IMG/VR virus record: IMGVR_UViG_2778261226_000006
DNA: 38,474 bases
Reading direction: 5' to 3' (one strand)
From: a virus
Lineage: Duplodnaviria > Heunggongvirae > Uroviricota > Caudoviricetes
The notes under the pieces are model-generated. The model did not search any database. It was not told the origin of the DNA and worked only from the letters and a program-made list of their open reading frames with translations. The position numbers were made by a program, and so were the translations under genes. Below, one piece after another: positions 1 to 35,854 of the stretch (position 1 is its first letter; every line of letters starts with the position of its first letter).

Positions 1-1053
1 TTACGGGGTAATGCCAACCGCTGCCGCCACTTTGTCGCCACTTGGCAGCGTTGCCAGAGGATTGAAACGGAGCGCCGTTTCCAGATGATCTGGTGCCAGA
101 TGTGCGTAACGCATAGTCATTTTTATATCGTGGTGTCCGAGAATTTTTTGTAAGGCGAGAATGTTTCCACCCGACATCATGAAGTGCGCCGCAAATGTAT
201 GGCGCAGAACGTGTGTGAGTTGACCGCGAGGGAGCACGATAGACGTTTTTTCCATCACGGATAAAAATTGAAAATAGCAGTCTGTAAAGAAATTGAACCC
301 ATCAAGCGCCATGATCTCTTCGTAAAGCTCTTTACTGATAGGGATGCTTCTGTTTTTCTTCCCCTTCGTTCTGACAAAGGTAATTCGGTATTTGGTCACC
401 TGTGAGCGGGTAAGATTTACGGCTTCACGCCAGCGTGCGCCTGTGCTTAAGCATATCTTAACTACCAGTGCCAGAATCGGGTCCTGACGTTTACAATCAG
501 CCAGCAATTCAACAATCTGCTCATGGGTAAGCCATGCCATCTCTTTTTCTGCGATGGTGAATTTTCGCATGTTCTCCAGTGGGTTCGGATACGACCATTC
601 GCCCAGGCGGGATAGTTCGCTAAAAACACTACTTAGATAGCTTTGCTCCAGGTTAATGGTGACCGGGCTTGCTCCTTTCTTCCATTTCTCGCTGAAGTAG
701 ATCTCACCTGTCAGGCGTTTATCTCGATAGTGGGCAAACATTTTAGAGGTGAGATCGGTTGCTAGGGGATTGCCCAGAGCGTCAACCATCAACAGCAATT
801 TATCATAGACATGCTGCCCAGCGGTTAGAGATTTACCATGTAGTTTGAACCATAGCTCAACCACGTCTTTCAGTGTTCGACGATCCACTGATTCTCCCAG
901 CCAGGGCTTTGCTTCGGTTTCTTCCATCGTATGGCGCTCAAAAGCCAGAGCTTCGCCTTTGGTGGCGAATTGTTTACGCACACGACGCCCACTACGTCCG
1001 GCGGGGTAACATTCGCAAAGCCATTTTCCTGTGGTGAGTTTTCGTACTGCCAT
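1..1053 (-). CDS. int: Tyrosine integrase (P2/186 Int family)
   Basis: Tyrosine-recombinase catalytic motifs are present: ...GARWREA..., HVLRHTFA, LGHHDIKMTMRYAHL. The N-terminus MAVRKLTTGKW... resembles P2-like Int. I start at Met27 of the ORF-track entry (ATG 1053). The stop codon TAA is at 1-3. Confidence 0.93.
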   Translation of the reverse strand: MAVRKLTTGKWLCECYPAGRSGRRVRKQFATKGEALAFERHTMEETEAKPWLGESVDRRTLKDVVELWFKLHGKSLTAGQHVYDKLLLMVDALGNPLATDLTSKMFAHYRDKRLTGEIYFSEKWKKGASPVTINLEQSYLSSVFSELSRLGEWSYPNPLENMRKFTIAEKEMAWLTHEQIVELLADCKRQDPILALVVKICLSTGARWREAVNLTRSQVTKYRITFVRTKGKKNRSIPISKELYEEIMALDGFNFFTDCYFQFLSVMEKTSIVLPRGQLTHVLRHTFAAHFMMSGGNILALQKILGHHDIKMTMRYAHLAPDHLETALRFNPLATLPSGDKVAAAVGITP

Positions 1054-1239
1054 AAAAAATGCCCTCCAATAGAGAGCATTTTTACTGTATGTATAACCAG
1101 TGTCAATGTATGAAATCCTGCGACCATACATCTCACTGAAGCCATAATGAAGTTGGCTATTTTTTGCTATGTGAGTATGTGACTTTTGCGGTTAGCCTGC
1201 GGCTCATTGTTATATTAGGCGCAGATATAAAAGCAAAAT

Positions 1240-1446: not shown

Positions 1447-2016
1447 TTACCTAACGTACTTAATTGTTAAACTTATAATTTTCCCAATTATTTCAACATC
1501 TTCTATCTTGCACTCGAAGGCTCTGTTTCCACCTTCAACGAAGATTCTTCCACCGGGTAAACGAGTAATGTCGCGGATTGTTATTTCGCCATCAATACTT
1601 ATTACCCATTTACCGTCACGTATATCATCAAATTCTTTATCACAAATAAATTCAGAATTGTTATCTGTGATGACAAAAGGTTTTTTAAACGTAGAGGGTA
1701 GAAATCCCTTATCAAAAATATAAAAACCGTCTTCACGCAAGGCACCATCAGATAATACATATTTAGCAACTTCCATAGTATTTGTATTACCTGAAGTTTG
1801 CTTTGAACCATGTCCGGTTGTGAGCCAATTAAGCGAGGTGCCCGTTTCAAGGGCGCACTGGATTACCCATTCTGCTGGGAATGAGTCACGCATGTAGCGT
1901 GTGGCGAGTGTACTTTTAGAGATTCCTAAATGATCGCACAACGCCTGTCGAGTTTTGAATCCATAAGCTTCTACCATGCGCTCTATAGCGCCTCGTCCGC
2001 CTTTCTCCAAATTCAT
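1447..2016 (-). CDS. cI: 186 CI-type immunity repressor
   Basis: HTH segment YGFKTRQALCDHLGISKSTLATRYMRD followed by CALETGTSLNWLTTGHG matches my memory of the 186 CI N-terminal domain. It is divergent from the lytic operon. GGAG lies 5 nt before ATG 2016. Confidence 0.85.
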   Translation of the reverse strand: MNLEKGGRGAIERMVEAYGFKTRQALCDHLGISKSTLATRYMRDSFPAEWVIQCALETGTSLNWLTTGHGSKQTSGNTNTMEVAKYVLSDGALREDGFYIFDKGFLPSTFKKPFVITDNNSEFICDKEFDDIRDGKWVISIDGEITIRDITRLPGGRIFVEGGNRAFECKIEDVEIIGKIISLTIKYVR

Positions 2017-2040
2017 GGTCACTCCAAGTGAACTTTTATC

Positions 2041-3719: not shown

Positions 3720-3946
3720 TGGCTGATGCAATGGATCTCGTACAGCAGCGCGTTGAAGAAGAACGCCAACGCCATATCCGTGCTGCCCGTGCCAAAACGC
3801 CGGGCGTGTCCCGCGTGCTTTGCGTTGAGTGTGAAGCGCCAATTCCGCCAGCACGCCGCCGTGCCATTCCGGGTGTGCAGCTTTGCATTACCTGTCAGGA
3901 AATCGCAGAGCTGAAAGGCAAACATTACAACGGATGTGCTGTATGA
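3719..3946 (+). CDS. TraR/DksA-family C4 zinc-finger protein
   Basis: CVECEAPIPPARRRAIPGVQLCITCQ is a CxxC-N17-CxxC motif typical of phage TraR-like proteins. The stop overlaps the dam start (ATGA at 3943-3946). Confidence 0.8.
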   Translation: MADAMDLVQQRVEEERQRHIRAARAKTPGVSRVLCVECEAPIPPARRRAIPGVQLCITCQEIAELKGKHYNGCAV

Positions 3947-4797
3947 GCACCATCCTGAAATGGGCAGGAAATAAAACCGCCATAATGTCCGAACTGAAAA
4001 AGCATCTTCCTGCTGGCCCGCGACTGGTTGAACCTTTCGCGGGTTCCTGTGCAGTGATGATGGAGACGGATTATCCCAGCTATCTTGTTGCGGATATTAA
4101 TCCTGATTTAATCAACCTCTATAAAAAGGTTGCTGCTGATTGTGAGGCGTTTATATCTCGTGCCAGAGCTTTATTTGAGGAAGCAAACAGGGAGGTGGCT
4201 TATTACAACATAAGGCAGGAGTTTAATTACTCCACTGAAATTACTGATTTCATGAAAGCGGTATATTTCCTGTATCTCAATCGTCACGGTTACCGTGGTT
4301 TATGTCGCTATAACAAGAGCAGGCATTTCAACATTCCCTACGGTAATTATAAAAATCCGTATTTCCCTGAAAAAGAAATTCGCGCATTTGCAGAGAAAGC
4401 CCAGCGGGCAACGTTTATCTGCGCCAGCTTTGATGAAACGCTGGCGATGTTGAAGGTGGGGGATGTGGTGTATTGCGATCCGCCTTATGACGGTACGTTT
4501 TCCGGCTATCACACTGATGGTTTCACTGAAGATGATCAGTATCACCTGGCATCCATTCTTGAACATCGGTCATCAGAAGGACATCCGGTCATTGTTTCTA
4601 ACAGTAACACGTCTTTGACCCGGTCCCTTTATCGTAATTTCACTCACCACTACATCAGGGCGAAACGCAGCATCGGCGTTGCAGCGGGGGAGGGAAAATT
4701 TGCAACAGAGATGATTGCCACTAAATCTGCTAATTGGTTTAGTGCCGATTTTAGTAGGGGACGTGACTCTACTGTTATTTTCGGGGTGCAAGTGTGA
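3943..4797 (+). CDS. dam: DNA adenine methyltransferase (Dam, GATC-type, alpha class)
   Basis: N-terminus [15 protein letters not shown]...[11 protein letters not shown] (AdoMet motif) and catalytic YCDPPY. I start at ATG 3943, not at the longer track ORF. Confidence 0.9.
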
Positions 4798-5624
4798 AAG
4801 AAATGCACCACGGAATTCATCATTTCCATGGGACGCCTGTCTGGGGAAGTGCTGGCGACGTTCATCGTATTGCGGTGAGCGGAGCTGGCGCTTTCGTCTC
4901 CTATGTACGACCAGATCAGATTGCGGCGTCCATTCAGCACGCTCAGGTCGTCGGCATTGATAACGGCGCATTTTCTGCATGGGTGCGTGGGCTAAAAATT
5001 AACTGGAGTGATTTTTATAAATGGCTCCTGAACTATTACCACCATCCTAAGGTCGCTTTTTTTGTCATTCCTGATGTTGTGGACGGAGGTGAACGTGACA
5101 ATGATGCCCTGATAAACGAAGTTCCGAAAATGTTCTACGGGAAGGCAACTCCCGTCTGGCATCTGCACGAGTCAATCGATCGGCTTATCGAGCTATGTCG
5201 TGAATGGCCTCGTGTCTGCTTTGGATCGTCTGGTGAATATGCGGCTATCAGAACTGCGCACTGGCATCGTCGTATGCAGGACGCTTTTGAAGCAATTTAT
5301 TGCCGACACAATTTCAAAACAGCTGTTCATGGTTTGCGCATGCTTGACGGTCGTGTGTTGGGAAATTACCCACTGGCGACTGCCGACAGTACAAATCTTG
5401 CCTGCAATGTCCCCAAATTTAATAGCAAATATCCTGAGCTGACGCGGGCTATTCAGGAGGCTGAGTATTCGCGCAATCTGACGGAAAAGGAGCTGAAAGC
5501 TGTCATTCTGAAAAACCGTTGCGCAATTTTAAAAGGTGCAATTGAAGCTGTTCGCCCACCTTCAGTTTCTGATTGGCTGTCGAATGGTTTGCAGCCTTCA
5601 CAGCTCGAACTGGAGATTGCGTAA
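4794..5624 (+). CDS. Unknown early protein, possibly a TGT/DpdA-like TIM-barrel (DNA 7-deazaguanine transglycosylase-like); function unproven
   Basis: Start overlaps the dam stop (GTGA) and stop overlaps the A start (TAATG). The motif series [39 protein letters not shown] resembles the strand-end motif order of tRNA-guanine transglycosylase-fold DpdA proteins as I recall them. Confidence 0.7.
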
Positions 5625-7996
5625 TGAACTACAGCTATTCCTGGAATGCTGAGAAAAAAGCAATCAATCCTTACGTAGAGACAGAAGAGCAATCTTCAGT
5701 TTCTGCGCTTTCAAACCTGATCGCTCTGTACGCTGCCGATAACGAGCAGGAACAGCTGCGCCGCGAGGCACTGAGTGATCAGGTCTGGGAGCGTTATTTC
5801 TTTAATGAATCCCGTGATCCTGTCCAGCGCGAAATGGAGCAGGATAAGCTCATTAGTCGGGCAAAGCTGGCGCATGAGCAGCAGCGTTTTAATCCAGATA
5901 TGGTCATTCTGGCGGACGTCAATGCCCAGCCTTCCCATATCAGCAAGCCGCTGATGCAACGTATTGAATACTTCAGCAGCCTGGGCAGGCCAAAGGCTTA
6001 TTCCCGCTATTTGCGTGAGACGATTAAGCCATGTCTGGAACGGCTGGAGCATGTACGCGACTGTCAGCTATCCACTTCTTTTCGCTTTATGGCAAGCCAT
6101 GAAGGGCTGGACGGCCTGCTGATCCTGCCTGAAATGAGTCAGGATCAGGTGAAACGCCTGTCCACCCTGGTAGCTGCGCATATGAGCATGTGCCTTGATG
6201 CAGCTTGTGGCGATTTGTATGTCACCGATGACGTTAAGCCAGAAGAAATCCGCAAGACATGGGAAAAGGTGGCAGCGGAAACCCTGCGTCTGGATGTCAT
6301 CCCGCCTGCGTTTGAGCAACTCCGCCGGAAAAGAAACCGCCGTAAACCCGTGCCCTATGAACTCATTCCGGGTTCGCTGGCGCGTATGTTGTGCGCTGAC
6401 TGGTGGTACCGGAAATTATGGAAGATGCGTTGCGAATGGCGGGAAGAGCAGTTGCGTGCTGTCTGCCTGGTCAGCAAAAAAGCATCTCCCTATGTCAGCT
6501 ATGAAGCCGTGATGCATAAACGTGAGCAGCGCCGTAAGTCGCTGGAGTTTTTTCGTTCTCATGAACTGGTGAACGAAGACGGCGACACGCTGGACATGGA
6601 GGATGTGGTAAACGCCAGCAGCAGCAACCCTGCGCATCGCCGCAATGAGATGATGGCCTGTGTTAAAGGCCTGGAGCTTATCGCGGAAATGCGCGGTGAC
6701 TGCGCCGTTTTCTACACCATCACCTGTCCGTCACGTTTCCATTCCACGCTAAATAATGGCAGGCCCAACCCAACTTGGACAAATGCGACGGTAAGACAAA
6801 GCAGTGATTATCTGGTCGGCATATTTGCTGCATTTCGTAAGGCGATGCACAAAGCCGGATTGCGGTGGTATGGCGTGCGGGTGGCTGAGCCGCATCATGA
6901 CGGTACAGTTCACTGGCACCTGTTGTGTTTTATGCGCAAAAAAGACCGCCGCGCCATCACTGCATTACTGCGTAAGTTTGCCATCCGTGAAGACCGCGAG
7001 GAACTGGGCAATAACACTGGGCCGCGCTTTAAGTCTGAGTTGATTAACCCGCGCAAAGGTACGCCAACAAGCTACATCGCGAAATACATCAGTAAGAACA
7101 TTGACGGGCGTGGTCTGGCTGGCGAGATCAGCAAGGAAACGGGTAAATCTCTGCGTGATAACGCTGAATACGTTAATGCCTGGGCGTCTCTGCATCGTGT
7201 TCAGCAATTCCGCTTCTTTGGCATTCCGGGGCGTCAGGCTTACCGTGAACTGCGATTGCTGGCTGGTCAGGCGGCAAGGCAACAGGGTGACAAAAAAGCA
7301 GGTGCGCCGGTACTGGATAACCCGCGCCTTGATGCCATTCTGGCTGCAGCTGATGCTGGTTGCTTTGCCACCTACATCATGAAGCAGGGCGGCGTACTGG
7401 TTCCCCGTAAATATCACCTCATCAGAACCGCTTATGAAATCAACGAAGAGCCGACCGCCTATGGCGATCACGGTATTCGTATTTATGGCATCTGGTCACC
7501 CATTGCAGAGGGCAAGATCTGCACTCATGCAGTGAAGTGGAAAATGGTTCGTAAAGCCGTTGACGTTCAGGAGGCGGCAGCCGACCAGGGCGCTTGCGCC
7601 CCTTGGACTCGTGGCAATAACTGTCCCCTTGCTGAAAATTTGAACCAACAAGGGAAAGACAAATCAGCTGATGGGGATACCAGAACGGACATTACCCACA
7701 TGGATGACAAGGAGTTGCACGATTACCTGCACAGTATGAACAAAAAAGAGCGCCGGGAACTGGCTGCAAGGTTACGCCTGGTGAAACCGAAACGGCGTAG
7801 AGACTACAAACAGCGAATTACAGACCATCAACGACAGCAGCTCGTCTATGAACTGAAGTCCAGAGGATTTGATGGCAGCGAGAAAGAGGTCGATTTACTC
7901 CTTCGCGGCGGCAGTATTCCGTCAGGAGCAGGCCTGCGTGTCTTCTATCGGAACCAGCGTTTGCAGGAAGATGATAAGTGGCGGAACCTGTATTAA
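5624..7996 (+). CDS. A: Replication initiation endonuclease (P2 gpA / 186 A, HUH rolling-circle nickase)
   Basis: HUH-type motif [13 protein letters not shown] and the tyrosine pair in [14 protein letters not shown]. Size and position match P2 A. The ATG 5624 start overlaps the upstream stop. Confidence 0.9.
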
Positions 7997-8044
7997 TTAC
8001 GCGGGTTAACAATTCGTGCTCTTAATAATACCAGGCATATCAGG

Positions 8045-8075
8045 CTGATGAACGTAAAAAAACGTTTTACATCAG
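8045..8075 (+). terminator. Hairpin downstream of gene A (possible early-operon terminator)
   Basis: CTGATG-AACGT-loop-ACGTT-(TTA bulge)-CATCAG. The T-tract is weak, so this call is tentative. Confidence 0.3.
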
Positions 8076-8090
8076 TAAGATTATTATATA

Positions 8091-8106
8091 CTGTAAATAT
8101 AAACAG
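8091..8106. promoter_or_regulatory. LexA (SOS) box
   Basis: taCTGTaaatataaACAGtg is a perfect CTGT-N8-ACAG with an AT-rich core. It lies 44 nt upstream of the 8150 start in an AT-rich promoter-like stretch. Confidence 0.8.
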
Positions 8107-8149
8107 TGGTTATCTATACAGTATTGTTTGCGGTGTCATAGGAGGAAAG

Positions 8150-8338
8150 ATGCAGGACTATTTTTTGGAGTCTTTGAAGCTCCAGCGCATTGATTTTTTT
8201 CTTAAGCTTGTAGCGGCTAGTGAGTGTAGTGATGAAGAGAAGGGGCTGGCCCTGCAGTGGGTTTCTGAATTGACTGATGAACTCATGGCAAAAATCAGAA
8301 GCCACGAATACAACCGCTCAATGGATGTCATCAGCTGA
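8150..8338 (+). CDS. Small SOS-controlled protein; candidate Tum-like antirepressor (62 aa)
   Basis: GGAGGA RBS (8141-8146) before ATG 8150, directly downstream of the LexA box. The position equals 186 tum. No sequence motif recognised. Confidence 0.55.
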   Translation: MQDYFLESLKLQRIDFFLKLVAASECSDEEKGLALQWVSELTDELMAKIRSHEYNRSMDVIS

Positions 8339-8348
8339 GGTGACTTTT

Positions 8349-8582
8349 ATGCGCATTGAAATAATGATCGATAAAGAGCAGAAGATTAGCCAGTCTACCC
8401 TGGACGCTCTGGAGTCCGAGCTTTACCGCAACCTGCAACCCATCTATCCCAAGACCGCTATCCGCATCCGTAAAGGGTCGGCAAACGGCGTTGAGCTGAG
8501 TGGCTTAAAGCTTGATGAAGACAAAAAGCGGGTGATGGAAATTATGCAACAGGTTTGGGAAGACGACAGCTGGCTGCACTAA
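8349..8582 (+). CDS. DinI-family protein
   Basis: MRIEIMIDKEQKISQSTLDALESELYRNL...KKRVMEIMQQVWEDDSWL parallels E. coli DinI (MRIEVTIAK...ISEILQETWES..DWF). Confidence 0.85.
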   Translation: MRIEIMIDKEQKISQSTLDALESELYRNLQPIYPKTAIRIRKGSANGVELSGLKLDEDKKRVMEIMQQVWEDDSWLH

Positions 8583-8700
8583 GGAACGTTCCTGATGTAA
8601 GAACTTGAATCTGACGTCAGCAAGGTTGAACAACGAGAGTAGCGAGGCGTTAGCCATGGGTAAAAAAGACAGTAATCACCAGATTATTTATCGGGGCTAG

Positions 8701-8916
8701 GTGCTGGAACGTTTAACCCTTGGCGACTGGGTCTTCTTTCAACGCCCAAAGGAGTGTGGCGGAGGTTTTTGGTTGGGCCGCATCTATGAAGACTGCTTCT
8801 GGCTTGAGCTGGAATTCCCCGTTTCGCTATATGACGGCCTGGGGTTTTTGATGGAAGTCACTAGGGTAGAGCAGAGAAGTGATGAGGTTGACGCGAATTA
8901 TCCCCTGTTTGATTAA
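8701..8916 (+). CDS. Hypothetical 71-aa ORF (GTG start)
   Basis: Open frame only. The RBS is weak and no motif is recognised. Confidence 0.3.
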   Translation: MLERLTLGDWVFFQRPKECGGGFWLGRIYEDCFWLELEFPVSLYDGLGFLMEVTRVEQRSDEVDANYPLFD

Positions 8917-8964
8917 AAATGTATTAGCTTATAATGGAATACTATTTTTGCAGGTGGGGGCGCA

Positions 8965-9576
8965 ATGGATTTAGTCTTTAAAGTTCTGGCTTCGTTGGGT
9001 GGGGTGTCTTTTGTTGCATCTGGCATATTTGTTTGGATCGGGAAAGTTTATTTAGAAAGATATAAGTCGCGGCTAAACAAAGATATTGCTGAATTTCAAT
9101 CACAACTGAGTGCAACTAATGAAAGAATAAAGGCTAAGTTAGACAATTCTGTTTATGTAACGAAAGCGTATTTTGATAAGGAGTTATCAGCATATAGTCT
9201 CATTTGGAATTCGATGTTTGAAACCAGAGAAAGCGTGCTTAAGCTGAGGCCTGCGCTGGATCATGTTGACCCCAACGAACCATTTGAAGAGAGAAAATTT
9301 AGAAGGTTGAAAGTTTTTTTTGATGCATTTAACACTTTTGTTACAAGTGTTGAATCTAACAAACCGTTCATCTCACCAGAGGTTTATATAATCTTGGACC
9401 GTTTCCGGAAGGAATGCCTTTCAGAGTCAATATCGTTTAAGCATAGCGATCCAGAATTTGACGGGCAAAATTATTGGAAAGAGGCGGAGTTGAACCATAC
9501 AACCATCACCAAGCTTTTTGATGAGACGTGTGATGCAATTCGAAACAGGATGCACACATTAACTGTGGTTACGTAG
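8965..9576 (+). CDS. Single-pass membrane protein with helical cytoplasmic domain (203 aa); cargo at the tin/old position next to cos
   Basis: N-terminal TM helix VLASLGGVSFVASGIFVWIG followed by a long predicted helical region. It starts a visibly AT-rich block. The position corresponds to the P2 tin/old variable locus. Confidence 0.75.
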   Translation: MDLVFKVLASLGGVSFVASGIFVWIGKVYLERYKSRLNKDIAEFQSQLSATNERIKAKLDNSVYVTKAYFDKELSAYSLIWNSMFETRESVLKLRPALDHVDPNEPFEERKFRRLKVFFDAFNTFVTSVESNKPFISPEVYIILDRFRKECLSESISFKHSDPEFDGQNYWKEAELNHTTITKLFDETCDAIRNRMHTLTVVT

Positions 9577-9668
9577 GTTTCCAAAAAGTCTCGATGCCCG
9601 CTTTGGAGATTGTGCATGTCTATGCCGCATGAATCCGCATGATCGTTTGAGGATCGTTTTAGCTGAGG

Positions 9669-9695
9669 CCCGCCAGGAGTGGCGGGATTTTGCTT
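9669..9695 (+). terminator. Rho-independent terminator-like hairpin
   Basis: CCCGCCA-ggag-TGGCGGG followed by ATTTTGCTT, downstream of the 203-aa ORF. Confidence 0.45.
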
Positions 9696-9736
9696 ATGTC
9701 ATGCAGGCGCATGAAAACCGCTACATAAAGCGGGCA

Positions 9737-9755
9737 GGCGTGGCGGGGATACGAG
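9737..9755. other. Candidate cos cohesive-end site (186-like)
   Basis: GGCGTGGCGGGGATACGAG shares its first 13 nt with the 186 cohesive end as I recall it (GGCGTGGCGGGGAAAGCAT; P2 is GGCGAGGCGGGGAAAGCAC). It lies in a GC-rich non-coding island between two AT-rich cargo blocks. Its orientation relative to Q matches P2. Confidence 0.55.
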
Positions 9756-9825
9756 CGCGCGCAAATATGGAAATTAGCTGCGTTTTGTTATATATAGGAG
9801 AGATATTAAAAGGGTAGGCACCACT

Positions 9826-10350
9826 ATGACTGTTTTACACCTTGTAGCAGACCACCTTGTTAAGCAGGCTAATACAACCCATAGAAAGGGGGAGGTGCAC
9901 GCAATATTAGCAGATGCATATGGTCGTTCTGCTTTTAATCGGTATTATTATGCTTGTTTTCTTAACGTCCGTGAGTTTGTTTCAACTATTGATTCCAATT
10001 GGGGCAAGGTCAAGCATGCAGATGTTCCAAAATTATTACGTGATAGTGTAAGTAGAAAGATAGAAGTTGAGCTCCAAAAATCAGAAAAAATTGGCGATAT
10101 AACTTTATGTGAATATAAATCTAAAAAGAGCTTAATACGTACTTCACTGAACAATATGGCTTCAACTATGGCATTGGCATATACAATTAGGGGAGTTGTT
10201 GATTATGAGCCGGAAATTGAGATGATATTCTGTAATGGCAGTTTTTCGATTAATAAAACATCAGTGGCTTCGGCTAAGGGGTGGCTACAAACCATTAATT
10301 CAGAAAGATCGAAGGTTACCAGAATTATGAAGGAGATTGGCTTTGTCTAA
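9826..10350 (+). CDS. HEPN-like all-helical protein (174 aa), first gene of the retron-associated operon
   Basis: AYGRSAFNRYYYACFLNVREFV...KVKHADVPKLL and a distal AYTIRGVVDYEPE resemble the HEPN (PF05168-type) pattern: ...YYA.F.a...l....sH... then R...DY. AT-rich. The stop overlaps the next ORF. Confidence 0.72.
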   Translation: MTVLHLVADHLVKQANTTHRKGEVHAILADAYGRSAFNRYYYACFLNVREFVSTIDSNWGKVKHADVPKLLRDSVSRKIEVELQKSEKIGDITLCEYKSKKSLIRTSLNNMASTMALAYTIRGVVDYEPEIEMIFCNGSFSINKTSVASAKGWLQTINSERSKVTRIMKEIGFV

Positions 10351-11080
10351 CCAGAAAATATTATCAGAATTGTTGGTAAAATTCCCGTTTATAAAAGTTA
10401 AAGATGTAACAGATTTTATGGATACAATTCTGTTGATCATCCCAATTAACAAAATAGTACCATTGTCTGCTTCGAATAGTATAACAAAACGCCAGATATC
10501 TTTATTGGTGAAACGAATAACAGAAAAGCTAAATGTAAGAGTGTTGATTAGTTACTCACCATTTTCAGATAAAGACAATATTGAAGCGGCTTTAGTGGCG
10601 TTAGCGAGAAGTAATTTTAAAAAAGGGAAGATATCTGATTTGAATTTATCTTTCTTTGATTCGCAAAACGCAGTGCTTTATGTCTTTTGTAAAAACCTTA
10701 CATTATCAGAACGCGAGAAGTGGGAGTCGTTAGTTGTAGGGATATTAAACGGTTTTAATATAAAAGTGACTTCATTTGTATATGAGGCTAAAAATAATCC
10801 TGAACCTACAATGATGGTTATTTTAAGAGCGGCAAAAAAATGTCAGCCCTTTGATCTTCCAAGATTGTTCAGTCAACTTGATAATGGCGATTATCATATT
10901 GAATCACTTGATTGGCTGAATGGGAAGCTAGACAACTTACGTAAGAAAGGATTTTTATTAAGAAGCCATGACGGAACTTATAGAATGACATTGTCAGGGT
11001 TAGAAATAGTTCCAGTGACTAAATCTAGGCAAAGTTCTGATATAGAGAGGGTCCTTTATCTTGCACGCAAACATCTATAG
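10337..11080 (+). CDS. Unknown protein with C-terminal winged-helix-like domain (about 245 aa), second gene of the retron-associated operon
   Basis: Overlaps the upstream stop (TTG 10337 or TTG 10343, 7 nt after GGAG). The C-terminal segment MMVILRAAKKCQPFDLPRLFSQLD...LDNLRKKGFLLRSHDGTYRMTLSGLEIV looks like a wHTH with a beta-wing. The N-terminal alpha/beta region was not recognised. Confidence 0.72.
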   Translation: MALSNQKILSELLVKFPFIKVKDVTDFMDTILLIIPINKIVPLSASNSITKRQISLLVKRITEKLNVRVLISYSPFSDKDNIEAALVALARSNFKKGKISDLNLSFFDSQNAVLYVFCKNLTLSEREKWESLVVGILNGFNIKVTSFVYEAKNNPEPTMMVILRAAKKCQPFDLPRLFSQLDNGDYHIESLDWLNGKLDNLRKKGFLLRSHDGTYRMTLSGLEIVPVTKSRQSSDIERVLYLARKHL

Positions 11081-11089
11081 TGGTATATT
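11061..11089 (+). promoter_or_regulatory. Sigma70 extended -10 promoter for the retron ncRNA
   Basis: TTGCAC (11061-11066), a 17-nt spacer containing TG, then TATATT (11084-11089): TGgTATATT. The predicted start, about 7 nt downstream, coincides with the first base of the a2 repeat (11096). Confidence 0.5.
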
Positions 11090-11095
11090 CGCGTT

Positions 11096-11268
11096 GGTAG
11101 TGGCGTTCACGAGAGTATGCATCATGCTCATTTGTGAAGGTCGCGGACAGAATGTGCGCCTGCGAATCAGCAGTCGTTCCTTCGAAACGTCTGCTGATTC
11201 GCAGGCGTCATCAACGAAAGTTTTCATCAGCTTTGCTTAAGGATTGACCTTATGAAAACGCCACTACC
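11096..11268 (+). ncRNA. Retron msr-msd non-coding RNA (template and primer for msDNA)
   Basis: 12-nt perfect inverted repeats GGTAGTGGCGTT (11096-11107, a2) and AACGCCACTACC (11257-11268, a1). Short msr-like hairpins lie at 11108-11136. The long msd hairpin has arm GCCTGCGAATCAGCAG (11158-11173) and arm CTGCTGATTCGCAGGC (11191-11206), 16 bp perfect, plus a 4-bp inner stem. It lies immediately upstream of, and overlaps the start of, a retron-type RT. Confidence 0.7.
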
Positions 11269-12229
11269 CTTATTTTTCACATTCACTGATGCCGAACAGT
11301 TTCTTAAGGCGTTGAGCACACCGCTGAGAGATAGATATTCTGCGGAACTTATTCGACTACAAGGCCTCAGGCTTCCCCCATTAGTTTCTTGGAGTATCTT
11401 GTCTGTTGCCATTGGCGTAAGCCCACAATTTATTACTTCGTTAATTAAGAATAAGTCAAAATACTATCGTGTTTTTTCTATTTCCAAAGGAAGAGGAAAG
11501 AAAAAAAGAATTATTGAAGCACCCAAGGTTAGTATAAAAATCATTCAGTCTTGGGTCGCTCATCATTTAAGCATTAATCATAGTCTTGGCATAAGTGAAA
11601 ATGCATATGCTTTTATCCCAGGTAAGAATGGGATATATGAAGCTGCAAGTAAACATTGTGGTGCAAAATGGATCCTGTCTATTGATTTAAGAGATTTTTT
11701 CCATACGATCACTTCAGATATAGTGATTTCAACATTAGTTGAAATCGGATATAGAGCCGATCAGGCTGCTAAATTGAGTGAATTACTTACCTTGAATCAG
11801 AGACTTCCGCAAGGTGCGCCAAGTAGCCCTGTTATCTCAAATTTAGTATTTAGGTCAACTGACTTAAAGATTAATGAGTTGATTTCTAATACGGGTATTA
11901 AATATACTAGATATGCTGATGATTTGACCTTCTCCGGTGATGATGAAACATTTGATATCGAGGAACTTAAAGATAATGTTGTAGAGTTGTTACTATCTGA
12001 TAATTGGGTTGTGGCTGAGGAAAAACTCAGAATAGCTAGGATTCCTAATAGATTAAAAGTACATGGTTTTCTAGTTCATGAAAATAAACCTAGATTGACT
12101 AAAGGCTATCGAAATAAAATTAGAGCATATAAACATTTATTGAGGACTGGGAAAATAGTTGAGAAGGATTTTGATAAAATTAAAGGGCATGTTAACTATA
12201 GTGAATATATTGATAGATTGAATGAGTAA
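11252..12229 (+). CDS. ret: Retron-type reverse transcriptase (325 aa)
   Basis: RT motifs KKKRIIEAP, SIDLRDFFHTI, LPQGAPSSPVISN and the YTRYADDLTFSG (YADD) active site. Retron-style NAYAF is present, and LKVHGFLV sits at the position of the retron VTG motif. Size is typical of stand-alone retron RTs. Confidence 0.92.
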   Translation: MKTPLPLFFTFTDAEQFLKALSTPLRDRYSAELIRLQGLRLPPLVSWSILSVAIGVSPQFITSLIKNKSKYYRVFSISKGRGKKKRIIEAPKVSIKIIQSWVAHHLSINHSLGISENAYAFIPGKNGIYEAASKHCGAKWILSIDLRDFFHTITSDIVISTLVEIGYRADQAAKLSELLTLNQRLPQGAPSSPVISNLVFRSTDLKINELISNTGIKYTRYADDLTFSGDDETFDIEELKDNVVELLLSDNWVVAEEKLRIARIPNRLKVHGFLVHENKPRLTKGYRNKIRAYKHLLRTGKIVEKDFDKIKGHVNYSEYIDRLNE

Positions 12230-12249
12230 GGGCCTAGCCCTTACTCATT
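12221..12249. terminator. Bidirectional hairpin between convergent ret and Q
   Basis: AATGAGTAAGGGC-cta-GCCCTTACTCATT is a 13-bp perfect stem that spans both stop codons. Confidence 0.6.
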
Positions 12250-13280
12250 TAATTTAATGTGTATATTCCAAAGGATATGATTTTATCTCCTATCCAGTTA
12301 TTTAACTCTTCTAGTCTTCTCTGTAATGGTATTAACTCATTCCTCACAAAAACAAGGCTTGCCTTCTCCACATCCCCAAAACCCCCAACATTATTAGGCA
12401 TTATCCCCATCATTTGTGGGGGTACACGATGCGCCGCCATCATGTCGTCCCGGCTTACGTTCTTGATGTTCAGAAACTCATCCTTCGCCGCGACTTCTGA
12501 TAACGGGATAATCTGAAGTCCGTCCTTTTTGCCGTTAGGAGAGTACATAAACAGATTGCGGAAGTTACCTGGTCCTTTGGCGCTTTTCATTGCATTGCGG
12601 AGGTTGTTCACATCCTCCTGGTTTTGTGCGGCGTCGGTCATGTACATGATGAAGCCTGCATGACTGCCGTTGATGTAATACTTCCGGCGGAACAGCGTGG
12701 CGGACTCGTTGAGCAGGGCTGACGGAATGGCAGAAAGATAACCGGGCAGGCCGTAGATCTCCTGGTTGATGTCCGGTTCCATCAGATGAAAAATGCTGCC
12801 TTTCGTGAACTGATACGGCTGGGTTGTCATACCGTATTGCACAAACCAGTAGGTATCCAGGTCTAACCCGCGTCGGGTGTATTTTGCCAGAGCAGGCTCA
12901 AGGGCGATAACTTCACCAAACCGGTTCGTGCGTTTCTCCAGGTAGGCGTTACCAAATACCAGATAGTCCTGCACAAAACGTGAAAAAGCCTGTTGGCTGA
13001 GCAGCGGGTGAGGGATGTAGGTGCTGGTCAGAATGTTGCATTTCACCGCAATCGGTGAGCTGTGATGCACGGCGGCGCGGAAGGTTCGCGCCAGTCCGTC
13101 AAAGCTGACGGGAGGCTCATACCAGCGATCTGTCTGTACGCATTCCACATAGTCCAGCAGTTCGCGGCGGTCAAGTACTGGAATGGGATCACCGAAGCTG
13201 AAAGCCTCAGCCGTTGGAGCGTTGCCTGGTTTTGTGTTGTGATCAACCTTTACCAGTTTGATGTTTTTATGTTTGCTCAT
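12249..13280 (-). CDS. Q: Portal protein (P2 gpQ)
   Basis: 343 aa at the P2 Q position and orientation. Sequence is of the P2 portal family (…YGLPGYLSAIPSALLNESATLFRRKYY…). Confidence 0.92.
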   Translation of the reverse strand: MSKHKNIKLVKVDHNTKPGNAPTAEAFSFGDPIPVLDRRELLDYVECVQTDRWYEPPVSFDGLARTFRAAVHHSSPIAVKCNILTSTYIPHPLLSQQAFSRFVQDYLVFGNAYLEKRTNRFGEVIALEPALAKYTRRGLDLDTYWFVQYGMTTQPYQFTKGSIFHLMEPDINQEIYGLPGYLSAIPSALLNESATLFRRKYYINGSHAGFIMYMTDAAQNQEDVNNLRNAMKSAKGPGNFRNLFMYSPNGKKDGLQIIPLSEVAAKDEFLNIKNVSRDDMMAAHRVPPQMMGIMPNNVGGFGDVEKASLVFVRNELIPLQRRLEELNNWIGDKIISFGIYTLN

Positions 13281-13984
13281 TCTGCCAGCTCCTCGTTAGC
13301 AAGAGGCCATTCGCACATAAACAGCATTCCCCAGTCCTCTGCTGATAATTCTTTTTTCATATCATTCAGCCAGTTATCAGTAAACAACATTGCTCCTGAT
13401 GCTACTGCATCATCAGCGGTGAATACCATGCGGGTTACACTGTTGTTTCTGCTTAGCTTTTTATATTCCTGCCATGCCTCCGGGTTAGGGCTGGGAGTGG
13501 TGTAGTAGGTGGCGTGGTGGTGTGCGTGCAAGGACATTCCTTTGGCGAGAGTAATCATATTTCTCGGTGATTCAGCCCAGGCATACTCTGACACGTAGAC
13601 ATTTCCACTGAGTGCGGCGGCGTGGCACTTGAGGTCGATAAAATAAATGACCGCACCATTGGGAAACTCCAGATATGTTTTGCCAGATTTTATTTTTCCA
13701 GTGCGCGTATAAGCTGCGGTCTGGCTTAAAAATGCTGACACATAGGCTTTGACTGCCTGCGCTGATGCGGTGCTGCAGCAGAGGAAAATCTGGTTACGCC
13801 CGGTATGCAGTGCATCGATCAGGGCCTCATAGGCAAAAAAGAAATCCGCTCCTGCCTGGCGCATTTTTGTGAGTAAACGGTTTCTACTCTTTGGGCCAGT
13901 GTTCCACTCATACTGGTAATCAAAGAAAGTGCTATCCACCGGAAGTCCCGCGATAGTCATGAGGTTAGTTGGGATTGGGGGCAT
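13277..13984 (-). CDS. Terminase-large-subunit ATPase-domain paralogue (235 aa), lacking the N-terminal and nuclease domains
   Basis: Aligns by eye to roughly residues 150-395 of the adjacent gpP. FFFAYEALIDALHTGRNQIFLCCS matches FYFAHEALIDALLTGRNQIFLSAS. NVYVSEYAW matches NLYLDEYFW. YYTTPS matches YFSTPS. MLFMCEW matches LLMCEF. Start and stop overlap the P stop and the Q start. Confidence 0.8.
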   Translation of the reverse strand: MPPIPTNLMTIAGLPVDSTFFDYQYEWNTGPKSRNRLLTKMRQAGADFFFAYEALIDALHTGRNQIFLCCSTASAQAVKAYVSAFLSQTAAYTRTGKIKSGKTYLEFPNGAVIYFIDLKCHAAALSGNVYVSEYAWAESPRNMITLAKGMSLHAHHHATYYTTPSPNPEAWQEYKKLSRNNSVTRMVFTADDAVASGAMLFTDNWLNDMKKELSAEDWGMLFMCEWPLANEELAE

Positions 13985-15750
13985 CAAAAAATCTCCACAA
14001 TATTGCTGGTATTGGCGGACTCGCCCTGCAGCGGTTCGTTAAACAGTGCGTGCATTGTTGCCCAGGCCAGATCGGCATGGCTGGCTTCTTCGCTGCGGCT
14101 GGCTTCATAGGTCGGGCGGTTGCCGCTGGCGGTGGTGGCGCGACGGATTGCCATAAATGACTGCGCAATGTCGGTGTGCCCGGCGTCAAACTCCAGACGG
14201 CGGTGGCTGATAATGTCGTAGGCCTTGAGTACCAGGGCGTTTTTAACGTTGGGGTTGTAGACAAACTCCCGGACGGCAGGAAAGAACGCTTTCACGTTCT
14301 CGTAAACTCCGTGACCGACACCTGTCGAGTCGATACCGATATAGGTCACGTTGTACTGTTCGGTCAGTTTTTTGATGGCGTCAGCCTGGGCGCGGAAGTC
14401 CATCCCGCGCCACTGGTGACGCTCAAGAATGCGAAACTTACCGCCTGGCACGGCTGGCGGTGCCACCACCACGCATCCGGCGCTGTCGCCGTTCTGCGTA
14501 CCTTTTGCCGGGTCATAACCGATCCACACTTCTCGCCAGCCAAACGGGCGCAGGGCCAGTGCATGAAAGTCGGTCCAGACTTCCCAACTGTCCACCATGC
14601 ATGCCTGCAGCTCGCTGAGCGGAAATACGGACGCGAGATCGTCCACGAATTCACACATCAGCAGGTTCTGGTATTCGTCCGGGCTGTATTCCATGCGCAA
14701 CTGGTCAAGGTCGAACAGGTTACAGCCGCCGCGCACCGCATCTTCCACGGTGACTATCTGGCGGTATTGCCCGTCTGCACACAGCAGGCCTGGAGCCAGA
14801 TTGCTGTGGGACAGGTCGATGTCCACCTTGTCGGCTTTATTGCGCCCACGGTTGAATAGCGCACCGGACCAGAACGGATAAGCACTGTGTGTCAGGCTGG
14901 ATGGCGTGGAAAAATAGGTTTGTCGCCATTTTTTGTGAATAGCCATACCGGAAGCCACTTTGCGCAGCTCCTGGAATTTCGGTATCCAGAAATATTCATC
15001 CAGATACAGGTTTCCGTGGTAACTCTGGGCCGTGCGGGCATTGGTGCCGAGGAAATACAGTGTGGCCCCGTTGGGAAGCACCATCGGATCGCCTTTCAGC
15101 TCCACTTCCACTTCTTTGGCGAAGTCGATGATGTACTGCTTAAAGACGTGGGCCTGTGCCTTGCTGGCGGAAAGGAAAATCTGGTTACGTCCGGTAAGCA
15201 GAGCGTCAATCAGGGCTTCATGGGCAAAGTAAAAGGTCGCGCCGATCTGGCGTGACTTCAGCAGGTTGCGGATGCGGTTGGTTTTTCCGGCTTCCCACCA
15301 GTGGCGCTGGTAGTTGAACATGGAGGAATGGAAGATTTCTTCCAGCTTCTCAATCTGCTCATCGGTGAAAACATTCTTTTCCGGCTGACGGCGCGGGCCT
15401 TTGTTGCGGTTGGCGACGTTAGGGTTTAAGTCGGCTTCGTTGCCGCCATTGTTAAACTTGCCGATCCGCGCGTGGCGTTCCGACTGGCGCGCCAGCAGGT
15501 CAATCTCTTTGAAATCTTTCCCTTCTTTGTGCTCCTTCATAATGAGCTGGCAGTAGCGTGCGGCGGTGGTGAGCTGCATCTGATCCAGCGGCCCATAGTC
15601 ACCCCACTTGTCGCGTTTCTTCCAGCTGTGAACGGTTGCAACTTTCTCGCCCAGCATTTCAGCAATGCGGGCTACACGGTATCCCTGAAAGTACAGCAGC
15701 ATGGCCTGCCGACGGGGATCGAGATCTGCGGGTGTCAGTGTGGTGTTCAT
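13984..15750 (-). CDS. P: Terminase large subunit (P2 gpP)
   Basis: 588 aa with an ATPase segment (KSRQIGATFYFA, LYLDEYFW) and a C-terminal nuclease-type domain (IGYDPA...IGIDSTGVG). Occupies the P2 P position. Confidence 0.93.
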   Translation of the reverse strand: MNTTLTPADLDPRRQAMLLYFQGYRVARIAEMLGEKVATVHSWKKRDKWGDYGPLDQMQLTTAARYCQLIMKEHKEGKDFKEIDLLARQSERHARIGKFNNGGNEADLNPNVANRNKGPRRQPEKNVFTDEQIEKLEEIFHSSMFNYQRHWWEAGKTNRIRNLLKSRQIGATFYFAHEALIDALLTGRNQIFLSASKAQAHVFKQYIIDFAKEVEVELKGDPMVLPNGATLYFLGTNARTAQSYHGNLYLDEYFWIPKFQELRKVASGMAIHKKWRQTYFSTPSSLTHSAYPFWSGALFNRGRNKADKVDIDLSHSNLAPGLLCADGQYRQIVTVEDAVRGGCNLFDLDQLRMEYSPDEYQNLLMCEFVDDLASVFPLSELQACMVDSWEVWTDFHALALRPFGWREVWIGYDPAKGTQNGDSAGCVVVAPPAVPGGKFRILERHQWRGMDFRAQADAIKKLTEQYNVTYIGIDSTGVGHGVYENVKAFFPAVREFVYNPNVKNALVLKAYDIISHRRLEFDAGHTDIAQSFMAIRRATTASGNRPTYEASRSEEASHADLAWATMHALFNEPLQGESANTSNIVEIF

Positions 15751-17804: not shown

Positions 17805-18455
17805 ATGAGCCTGAGTCCCGCACGGCAGCATCGCCTGCGCGTTCAGGCTGAACAGGCCGCCCGTGAGGGTGGCAGTGTTCGCCACGCGTCGGGCTATGAC
17901 CTGATGCTGCTGCAACTGGCAGAAGACCGCCGCCGTCTCAAGGGCGTTCAGTCCACGGTGAAAAAAGCGGAAATCAAGGTGGAGCTGCTGCCGAAATATG
18001 CCGCCTGGGCGGAGGGCGTCCTGGCTGCCGGAGGCGCTCAACAGGATGACGTGCTGATGTACGTGATGCTGTGGCGCATTGATGCCGGAGATTATGCCGG
18101 GGCGCTGGAGATCGGGCGTCATGCCCTGCGTCATGGCTGGGTGATGCCGCTGGGTAACCGCAACGTGCAGACCGTGCTGGCAGAGGAAATGGCAGACGCC
18201 GCGCAGAGCGCAATACTTGCCGCCACCGGCTTTGATGCCGATCTGTTGTTGCAGACGCTGGAGCTGACAGACGGTCTGGATATGCCGGACCAGTCACGGG
18301 CGCGTCTGCATAAAGCGATTGGCGCTGTCCTGAGTGAAAGCAATCCGGCTTCCGCCCTTAATCATCTCAACCATGCGTTACAGCTCGATCCCCGCTGTGG
18401 CGTGAAAAAAGACAAACAGCAGCTGGAGCGCAGACTGCGCAATGACAGCCGCTGA
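17805..18455 (+). CDS. M: Terminase small (endonuclease) subunit (P2 gpM)
   Basis: GAQQDDVLMYVMLWRIDAGDYAGALEIGRHALRHG parallels P2 gpM. Confidence 0.85.
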   Translation: MSLSPARQHRLRVQAEQAAREGGSVRHASGYDLMLLQLAEDRRRLKGVQSTVKKAEIKVELLPKYAAWAEGVLAAGGAQQDDVLMYVMLWRIDAGDYAGALEIGRHALRHGWVMPLGNRNVQTVLAEEMADAAQSAILAATGFDADLLLQTLELTDGLDMPDQSRARLHKAIGAVLSESNPASALNHLNHALQLDPRCGVKKDKQQLERRLRNDSR

Positions 18456-35112: not shown

Positions 35113-35604
35113 CTAGCATCCGATAAGGTCGTTTGCTTCAAACTTTGGCAAATGATACTCATTTGCCAAATGTTCGTTATCTTTGTTATTTTTTAAATAT
35201 TTGTATTTTAATGTATTTTTATCTTCATTGTATGATAATAAAGCTTCCCCGATAGGAACATCACGCCACCCTATTTGAATGCAAAGAAGGATAGTGACCT
35301 GCCCTTTATGGTTTAGCTTACCCGAGAATGTAAAGGTGCATTTCTCTTCATCAAGGCTTGTTGATGAACAGTTAGTGATAGTCCCTGCCAAATTGCCGAC
35401 GACATCTGATGACTCAATTTTTATGCTTATTATATTCTCATTATGGTTGCGAATATCACCAACATTGTTCCAGTTTTTTGAGACTAGAAGCTCAATAATT
35501 CTTTTTTTCTTAAGGCGTTTTACTTCCTTTGCCTGTGGTGAGTATAAGAGGTATGCGGGTATGCCTGCTACAATTGCCAGCACAGCTAATATAATGGTAA
35601 CCAT
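35113..35604 (-). CDS. AT-rich single-pass membrane protein (163 aa), unknown function
   Basis: AAGGA lies 6 nt before ATG 35604. The N-terminal TM is VTIILAVLAIVAGIPAYLLY and the C-terminal part is beta-rich. It is bracketed by 14-bp direct repeats. Confidence 0.65.
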   Translation of the reverse strand: MVTIILAVLAIVAGIPAYLLYSPQAKEVKRLKKKRIIELLVSKNWNNVGDIRNHNENIISIKIESSDVVGNLAGTITNCSSTSLDEEKCTFTFSGKLNHKGQVTILLCIQIGWRDVPIGEALLSYNEDKNTLKYKYLKNNKDNEHLANEYHLPKFEANDLIGC

Positions 35605-35620
35605 CTGAAGTCCTTGTTCT

Positions 35621-35634
35621 TCTGCCGCCATTTT
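35621..35634 (+). repeat. 14-bp direct repeat copy 2 (TCTGCCGCCATTTT)
   Basis: Exact repeat of 35046-35059. Confidence 0.7.
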
Positions 35635-35699
35635 GCCGCCAAAGATAAGTAAAGTAGTTTCTAACTTATTGATTATGGAATGGAAGAATAGCAGGCAAC

Positions 35700-35742
35700 A
35701 AAAAACCCATCAACCTTGAACCGAAATGGCGGGGTTGATGGG
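35700..35742 (-). terminator. Rho-independent terminator of ybjL
   Basis: On the minus strand: CCCATCAAC-loop-GTTGATGGG followed by TTTTTT. Confidence 0.7.
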
Positions 35743-35854
35743 CTCCACAAAATGGGGACATCAAAGAAAAGCAGTGGCACTAATTAAGACTGATGCCCTG
35801 CGGAAAAGTTCTGCGGTTGTGCAAAAAAATTTCATTTTCAGGGCAACTTCAGTT

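Follow-up and report, generated by a model that had tools for sequence, protein, structure and literature searches.

Where is the virion DNA of a P2/186-family prophage cut when accessory genes crowd both sides of its packaging region, and does the cut site divide this accessory DNA into one exchangeable locus or into two? The question is raised by positions 9577–9825 of a 38,474-nt viral sequence (Caudoviricetes; IMG/VR record IMGVR_UViG_2778261226_000006), hereafter the window, which comprises an essentially complete prophage of the P2/186 family (Fels-2 subtype), integrated in Escherichia coli beside rybB/ybjL. A preliminary description had placed a 186-like cohesive-end (cos) site here, in a GC-rich island that splits the accessory DNA into two separate cargo loci. 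Judged from its sequence, the segment 9612–9762 would be the cos (packaging) site of the prophage, flanked by accessory slots, with a probability of roughly 90%.

Identification of a predicted cohesive end

The annotated ends of P2 (NC_001895; cosL at 1–19, cosR annotated) and 186 (NC_001317; cos annotated at 1–19) served as references, and their circular junctions were rebuilt for the comparison. Aligned with these two sites, positions 9737–9755 of the plus strand form a predicted 19-nt 5' cohesive end, GGCGTGGCGGGGATACGAG. The start of the 186 cohesive end had been recognized at 9737 in the preliminary description; GGCGTGGCGGGGA indeed starts there, and the first 13 nt are identical to those of the actual 186 record (GGCGTGGCGGGGAAAGCAT), with which the window agrees at 15 of the 19 positions in total. 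The P2 cohesive end (GGCGAGGCGGGGAAAGCAC) agrees at 14 positions, as does that of P4, and the alignments to 186 and P2 are gapless. By homology, the nicks are predicted between 9736 and 9737 on the top strand and between 9755 and 9756 on the bottom strand.

The junction in the window reads CGCATGAAAACCGCTACATAAAGCGGGCA, followed by GGCGTGGCGGGGATACGAG and CGCGCGC; that of 186 reads TGCATTAAAACCGACCCATAAAGTGGGCA, followed by GGCGTGGCGGGGAAAGCAT and TGCGCGC. Comparison with P2, 186 and other P2-like cos regions, which had been proposed as a check on the site, bore it out: the alignment is co-linear over ~150 bp with the annotated cos junctions of P2, 186 and P4, and in the 55-bp core (−29 to +26) the identity was 44/55 with 186, 42/55 with P2 and 43/55 with P4. 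A conserved core of ~55 bp around the cut sites is attributed to Ziermann & Calendar (1990) in passages of PMC5694545 and PMC3931495. A degenerate P2-family pattern of the 19-mer, with at most two mismatches, occurs once in the 38.5-kb window, against a chance expectation of 0.03.

The same 19-mer is the published cos of SEN8, an inducible Salmonella phage (PMC5427200); it is also found in Fels-2 (at the same position) and in Yersinia phage MLG42, and the surrounding 36-mer is present in the genomes of 25 Enterobacterales species. The label '186-like' was correct as to the P2/186 family but not as to the subtype, which is that of the Fels-2/SEN8 group rather than of 186 itself. The strand that reads GGCG... 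is the plus strand and Q lies downstream on the minus strand; the orientation is as in P2 and 186, and the orientation toward Q had been read correctly. The order of the elements (A, DinI, cargo, cos, cargo and Q on the minus strand) fits the placement of cos in the P2 family, and the cognate P2-type terminase pair (gpP, large subunit; gpM, small subunit) is encoded by the same prophage.

Anatomy of the conserved block

Conservation was profiled over 34 loci from at least 25 Enterobacterales species. Ungapped per-position conservation was 0.7–1.0 over 9612–9762 and at background level (0.15–0.5) at 9611 and 9763. The block thus delimited, 151 bp on the plus strand, consists of a right-end arm of 125 bp, the 19-nt cohesive end and CGCGCGC (9756–9762), with which the conserved cos core ends toward the left-end side (TGCGCGC in P2 and 186, CGCGCGC in P4). 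Ninety phage records match the window at 9610–9764 only. The GC content of the block is 57.6%, versus 41.4% in the cargo to its left and 36.0% in the retron cassette to its right, which confirms the GC-rich island. The coordinates 9577–9825 contained the cos site but were too wide: only 9612–9762 is the functional block, whereas 9577–9611 belongs to the right-end cargo as its tail and 9763–9825 to the retron cassette as its leader.

Three direct GCATG(A) boxes (9614–9618, 9627–9632 and 9637–9642; plus strand), which are candidate cosB-like sites, are followed by a proximal GCATGA pair, inverted (TCATGC) at 9699–9704 and direct (GCATGA) at 9709–9714. The proximal pair is 97–100% conserved and co-linear with TCATGCAACTGCATTA of 186 and TGCATTA of P2 and P4. 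Measured from the nick, boxes of the form GCAT(G/T)A occupy constant positions (about −124, −111, −101, −37 and −30) in P2, 186, P4, Fels-2 and the window, and GCAT or ATGC was counted six times in 130 bp of the window versus 1.0 expected (P = 0.0004). These boxes are candidate binding sites of the small terminase subunit and may have a cosB-like role. The cos of lambda (cosN plus cosB) is likewise asymmetric, with repeated boxes on one side of a staggered nick and hardly any sequence needed on the other (general scheme in PMC7617512); the corresponding role of the boxes here is presumed, and lambda differs in its unrelated sequence and terminase family and in its overhang of 12 nt versus 19 nt.

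Overlapping the third box is a direct repeat, GATCGTTT-gag-GATCGTTTT (9641–9660; plus strand), with two GATC (Dam) sites at 9641 and 9652. Its positions are 0.9–0.97 conserved in the Fels-2-type group; the repeat is absent from P2, 186 and P4. The two sites are a peculiarity of this group, and a D12 Dam methyltransferase gene lies upstream of gene A in its members (3883–4797 in the window). The methylation state of cos could be relevant to packaging or its timing.

The preliminary description had further noted two hairpins. The first, CCCGCCA-ggag-TGGCGGG with a T-run (9669–9695, hairpin 9669–9686; plus strand), is real and terminator-like: it has 7 pairs (ΔG −18.4, z −3.0), and in 34 relatives the stem is invariant and the loop variable. 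Analogous GC-rich inverted repeats are found at the same place in 186 and P4 and none in P2. Because P2 lacks it, the hairpin is probably a terminator and not a packaging requirement; as an intrinsic terminator it likely ends rightward transcription of the DinI gene and the right-end cargo before cos. If the block were no more than such a transcriptional boundary, a terminator followed by a promoter, the true packaging site would lie elsewhere, for example at 8583–8964. The hairpin fits this explanation, which we nevertheless consider almost certainly wrong. No other P2-family cos-like sequence is present in the window, even at two mismatches, and relatives that share the packaging genes lack the interval 8655–9611. 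A promoter scan of 8500–12400, in which matches were fewer than expected from shuffled sequences, found no sigma-70-like promoter in or just after the block, the retron leader 9763–9825 included.

The second hairpin, CCGCT-acataa-AGCGG (9718–9733; plus strand), abuts the nick site within the conserved 55-bp core, and the stretch between the proximal GCATGA boxes and the 19-mer reads AAAACCGCT-acataa-AGCGGGCA. The inverted repeat exists (5 pairs, ΔG −7.9, z −2.2) but is weak, and its pairs are partly kept in relatives: 4 of 5 in P2 and 3 of 5 in 186, while most Fels-2-type relatives have CCACT...AGCGG with one mismatch. It was therefore rejected as a conserved hairpin structure and is regarded as part of the conserved core sequence. 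A scan of the whole window at the Rfam gathering thresholds gave no family in the cos block.

The open reading frame across cos

An open reading frame (ORF) of 62 aa (9629–9817) runs through the block, and its product matches phrog_28685 with an E-value of 8.8e-25. Could the block be conserved for this protein and not as a DNA site? Besides this match, 28 of 29 relatives retain the ATG, and equivalent ORFs are annotated as hypothetical proteins in MLG42 and some Klebsiella phages. The match, however, is confined to residues 1–46, that is, to the cos block, and the C-terminus and the total length (46–86 aa) vary with every cassette. In 8 of the 29 relatives the frame is broken, by an in-frame stop at codons 13–23 or by loss of the ATG, and the NCBI annotation pipeline (PGAP) calls it a pseudogene with an internal stop in two of the prophage loci compared (L007 and L008, see below). 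Substitutions at codon positions 1, 2 and 3 numbered 104, 165 and 123, without the third-position excess of a coding sequence. The ATG itself is part of a conserved GCATGA box; P2, 186 and P4 share the box but have no such ORF. Conservation as a coding sequence is thus highly improbable; the ORF was rejected as a gene and is a translation artefact of the conserved DNA site, as the preliminary description had suspected. The family phrog_28685 ('unknown function') appears to be built from the translated cos DNA block (window 9629–9766) and not from a real gene.

Two cargo slots that assort independently

The region 7900–13400 of the window was compared by local blastn with ten relatives (Fels-2, MLG42 and eight E. 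coli prophages). Homology breaks between 8654 and 8655, at 9610–9614 and at 9762–9765, and resumes at 12271–12322 inside the 3' end of Q. The layout is therefore a backbone up to 8654, a variable segment from 8655 to ~9611, the cos block (9612 to 9762/9765) and a second variable segment that extends into Q. We refer to the two variable segments by their position in the virion, as the right-end slot (8655–9611) and the left-end or cos-Q slot (9763–12248).

In strain MFDS1016424 (locus L007) the right-end slot is empty and the cos-Q slot holds the same retron cassette as the window (99.6% identity); in PSJ-12 (L008) a different gene, of 219 aa, occupies the right-end slot and the retron is the same. 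Six strains (L009–L014) carry the 71-aa and 203-aa genes of the window in the right-end slot, with 98.6–99.8% identity over the whole left part; their cos-Q slots contain an St85-type retron, a P-loop NTPase, a DUF4145 protein, three hypothetical genes, AIPR, or ParA plus SIR2. One right-end cargo (99.7% identity) was thus found with six different cos-Q cassettes, and one retron with three states of the right-end slot. The right-end slot is also empty in MLG42 and holds other genes in Fels-2. Where the cos-Q slot is 'empty' (L042 and MLG42), as in 186 and P2, the spacer is ~165–190 bp long, GC-rich and includes a terminator; in the 'empty' relatives a 180-bp spacer plus terminator stands where the cassette would be. 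The 36 loci that have the identical 19-mer and sufficient flanking sequence fell into 17 left-flank types and 26 right-flank types, in many-to-many combination. The particular cargo combination of the window was found in none of 5,426 complete E. coli genomes.

In this lineage the two slots that flank cos assort independently, and the proposed division of the accessory DNA into two loci is borne out by breakpoints that are reproducible in ten relatives. One may still regard the whole of the DNA between A and Q as a single hotspot with cos somewhere inside, without a division into two separate units; gpA-gpQ was analysed as one hotspot adjacent to cos by Rousset et al. (2022) and in a 2026 survey in Nucleic Acids Research (NAR). 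Several observations make such an arrangement quite unlikely here. On either side of the block the positions of the junctions vary by no more than a few bases; either slot may be empty while the other is filled (L007; L009–L014 versus L042); the same content on one side is combined with many contents on the other; and cosL-Q was earlier singled out as a hotspot of its own, in a passage of PMC5694545. Two slots that are exchanged separately around a 151-bp packaging signal, instead of the one 'gpA-gpQ hotspot' of the surveys, matter for cataloguing the defence-cassette repertoires of P2-like phages.

The left junction of the right-end slot falls directly after a short conserved motif, GCGAGGCGTTAGCC (8641–8654). 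The motif reads GCGAGGCGTTAGTG in relatives in which the slot is empty, and it also occurs in 186 upstream of the terminator t95b (L004, ~2903–2916). It may be a conserved anchor for the right-end slot.

Evidence for a probably working packaging site

A block with these features could also be a cos-derived relic in a defective prophage, which is neither cut nor used. The window begins at the stop codon of int, so that attL lies outside the DNA inspected, and an unusual extra gene for a terminase ATPase domain lies between P and Q. The backbone genes, however, argue for an intact prophage. The integrase (1–1131, minus strand) and the CI-type repressor (1447–2022, minus strand) are full length with strong Pfam matches. 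Replication gene A (5573–7996) and the DinI/Tum-like gene (8277–8582), which points to SOS control, precede the cargo, and portal gene Q (12249–13280, minus strand; Pfam Phage_portal) follows it. The large terminase subunit P (13984–15750, minus strand; Pfam Terminase_5, Terminase_6N and Terminase_6C) is the expected cutter of cos, and the small subunit M (17805–18455, plus strand; Pfam Phage_term_smal, 2.3e-40) is expected to recognize it. Beyond P the order is scaffold O, capsid N, M, tail genes, D and ogr. The genes of the terminase, portal, scaffold and capsid are intact, and Q, P, O, N, M, D, ogr, int and CI are all full length, with strong Pfam matches. All conserved elements of the block are intact as well, and 25 other species have an identical core.

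The extra gene (236 aa; 13277–13987, minus strand) overlaps its neighbours by 4 bp on each side. Its product corresponds to the ATPase domain of the large terminase subunit only (Pfam Terminase_6N, 3e-17; phrog_3746) and is 34% identical to residues 142–368 of P, with VYVSEY at the place of LYLDEY in P. Homologues of 233–241 aa, with identities down to 50%, are found in E. coli, Salmonella, Citrobacter and Leclercia, and in all six contexts inspected (L042–L047) the homologue lies between P and Q of a Fels-2-like prophage; the gene is absent from L008–L014. Since it is conserved (235–241 aa, to 50% identity) in many such prophages, the gene is not a sign of damage. Taken together, the evidence makes a relic unlikely.

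Several points nonetheless count against the assignment of a functional cos site between two slots. The overhang differs from both P2 and 186 at positions 14, 16, 17 and 19, so the exact cut positions rest on homology, and for the exact 19-mer we found one cos assignment, that of SEN8, which is based on annotation, and no experimental mapping. The extra terminase-ATPase paralog between P and Q might affect packaging. In the literature we found no documented binding of terminase to GCAT boxes. Finally, the sample from which the assortment was read is biased, the E. coli loci having been picked for their similarity to the window. The following working of the site is proposed.

After excision and circularization of the prophage, a P2-type terminase (M plus P) would act on cos. 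It would bind the 125-bp right-end arm with its five GCAT boxes and introduce two nicks 19 nt apart, leaving 5' overhangs of GGCGTGGCGGGGATACGAG. In the virion DNA the retron cassette would then form the first 2.5 kb of the left end, and the 203-aa gene would be the last gene of the right end; a correct placement of cos thus fixes the virion map, with the retron at the extreme left and the gene of the membrane-anchored protein at the extreme right. Apparently 26 bp suffices to the left-end side of the nick, whereas toward the right end ~125 bp is needed. This small requirement in cis would allow accessory cassettes to abut the block on both sides, and the limit of at most 26 bp on the left-end side would be useful in the design of cos plasmids and phage-delivery vectors. 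The block together with the far-side Q or DinI region would provide the homology anchors for the swapping of cassettes, by which the slots could assort independently.

Exchange points inside the block

The sequence of the block retains traces of such swapping. The window is identical to L009, which has the same right-end cargo, up to 9763. Compared with L007, which has the same retron, there are 14 differences in 9624–9720 and none from 9721 on. The exchange is thereby confined to 9721–9763, the 43-bp invariant core that contains the nick and the 19-nt overhang. L007 and L008 have the retron and the variants at 9677–9720 in common and differ in 9612–9667, which places another exchange mid-block, at ~9667–9677. 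A single haplotype of the block, shared by the window, L009, L010 and L012, occurs together with four cos-Q cassettes, all different. For the three cassettes other than that of the window, the crossover presumably fell to the right of 9720, the last informative site.

The simplest reading is homologous recombination, with the conserved block as one anchor and the Q or DinI region as the other. It is conceivable, though we consider it doubtful, that the invariant cos core is itself a preferred joint for cassette exchange, beyond the effect of flanking homology. This would fit annealing and ligation of terminase-cut ends from co-resident P2-like genomes or satellites, and Rousset et al. (2022) speculated on the joining of cos ends as a route of exchange. 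The alternative route is RecA-type recombination along the block. Ordinary homologous recombination with a preference for the longest stretch of perfect identity would fit the same data, and the case for a preferred joint is weakened by the exchange elsewhere in the block (~9667–9677) in L007 and L008. Strict exchange at the nick is unsupported, as these two loci switch haplotype mid-block.

Comparison with known systems

A second insertion point on the far side of cos, as put forward in the preliminary description, is real but not new: it is the slot of the retrons Ec67 and Ec86. Dodd & Egan (1996; Virology 219:115), as cited in passages of PMC6868368, PMC5694545 and PMC7826664, reported that retrons replace the DNA between cos and a terminator in 186-related prophages. 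In the loci of Ec86 (Eco1) and Ec67, as here, the retron replaces the DNA between cos and the portal-adjacent terminator. The Ec86 locus of E. coli BLR(DE3) has the same cos block and 19-mer, and its cassette extends from the same base after CGCGCGC to the portal stop; this prophage remnant lies at ~0.86 Mb, probably at the same rybB/ybjL site. The cassette of the window likewise starts directly after the cos core, between 9762 and 9763, and takes the place of the non-coding spacer and terminator upstream of the portal stop. It differs in type, as the retron here is of type IX (HEPN, HTH, RT) and neither of the St85/Ec86 type nor of the RT-Toprim type of Ec67.

In the Fels-2/SEN8/RE-2010 group (Felsduovirus and relatives) the 19-mer is identical, the block is 88–95% identical with the same boundaries, and cos lies, as here, between the DinI-side genes and Q. 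Fels-2 differs in its cargo only, with an orf97-like gene in the right-end slot and a gene for a 565-aa protein in the cos-Q slot. Shared with 186 and P2 are the GCAT boxes, AAAACCG...GGGC(A/G), the 19-mer and (T/C)GCGCGC, as well as the orientation and the type of terminase. The cohesive ends of 186 and P2 (19-nt, 5') are experimentally defined, whereas those of the window are assigned by homology; the overhangs differ at 4–5 of 19 bases, the GC-rich hairpin is missing from P2, and the cos-Q interval of both phages is a non-coding spacer of ~165–175 bp plus the terminator tW/tQ, without a cassette. The satellite P4 has the same cos core and GCAT boxes and also carries variable cargo (gop/beta/cII) right after CGCGCGC, but it is without packaging genes and has one slot only, from cos to int. 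The right-end slot resembles the tin/old (TO) region of P2 and the gpA-gpQ hotspot, in which variable accessory genes of low GC content separate the replication-side genes from the right arm of cos; Rousset et al. (2022) count both sides of cos as one hotspot, whereas two slots are present here.

The architecture has thus been known since 1996, and our finding is a re-derivation of a known layout. With cos-Q retrons described in that year and the cos subtype already annotated, current understanding is unchanged; what is added is that the boundaries are now precise, that independent assortment is demonstrated for this lineage and that exchange points have been mapped within the block.

Cargo of the two slots

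The right-end slot (8655–9611, plus strand; GC 41.4%) is the positional equivalent of the tin/old slot of P2. It contains a 71-aa ORF (8701–8916; phrog_2100) and the gene of a 203-aa protein (8965–9576; phrog_26391, unknown function) with one N-terminal hydrophobic anchor (Kyte-Doolittle maximum of 2.0 at residues 7–25). This membrane protein had been assigned to the right end of the genome, and its gene does lie in the interval from the A-side genes to the right arm of cos. It has no relationship to Tin or Old (an OLD-family ATPase/nuclease), so the equivalence of the slots is one of position only. Neither the 71-aa nor the 203-aa protein has a match in PADLOC. The sole Pfam match of the 203-aa protein, a coiled-coil one to Val_tRNA-synt_C, is below threshold (E 0.0097; 16.6 bits versus a cut-off of 25.9). 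Its homologues are named 'valyl-tRNA synthetase' by RefSeq/PGAP in many E. coli genomes (loci of the L010 and L013 type); the name, for which this sub-threshold match is apparently the only basis, is a propagated mis-annotation.

The left-end slot (9763–12248, plus strand; GC 36.0%) holds a type IX retron cassette, in the Mestre classification as used in PADLOC, and the retron is thus found between cos and Q as the preliminary description had it. After the leader (9763–9825, plus strand) come three plus-strand genes, HEPN_IX (9826–10350; PADLOC 1.4e-52), HTH_IX (10337–11080; 1.5e-61) and RT_IX (11252–12229; 4.2e-129; Pfam RVT_1). NCBIfam gave no match for the effector genes of the retron or for the 203-aa protein. 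An msr-msd-like non-coding RNA region is located between HTH_IX and RT_IX (~11091–11270), with a putative msd hairpin at 11156–11207 (22-bp stem) and a1/a2-like inverted repeats, GGTAGTGGCGTT (~11097–11108) and AACGCCACTACC (~11258–11269), that were read directly from the sequence. The whole-window scan at the Rfam gathering thresholds returned no retron RNA family, 11091–11270 included.

The cassette ends in a terminator hairpin with a 19-bp stem (12215–12255; ΔG −26.1, z −8.8) that overlaps the stop codons of RT and Q, and every different cassette brings a terminator hairpin of its own next to the stop codon of Q. The last 25–30 codons of Q (~12249–12322) travel with the cassette, as DNA homology to relatives with other cassettes resumes only at 12271–12322; the right-hand junction therefore lies inside a structural gene. 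The cassette thus replaces the spacer, the terminator and the last 25–30 Q codons and supplies a terminator of its own. The 3' end of Q is low-GC, diverged DNA in which the protein pattern PLQ.R..E.N.W...I.F..Y is kept.

Chromosomal border

The right flank is E. coli chromosome, with the small RNA RybB (35697–35775, minus strand), which is the sole match at the Rfam gathering threshold in the whole window, followed by ybjL, ybjM and grxA. At the border of prophage and chromosome, between ogr and rybB, lies an ORF of 172 aa (35113–35631, minus strand), which had no match in Pfam, PHROG or NCBIfam; its site may be another small cargo position, beside attR. A P2-like prophage occupies the rybB/ybjL site in ~900 of the 5,426 E. 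coli genomes.

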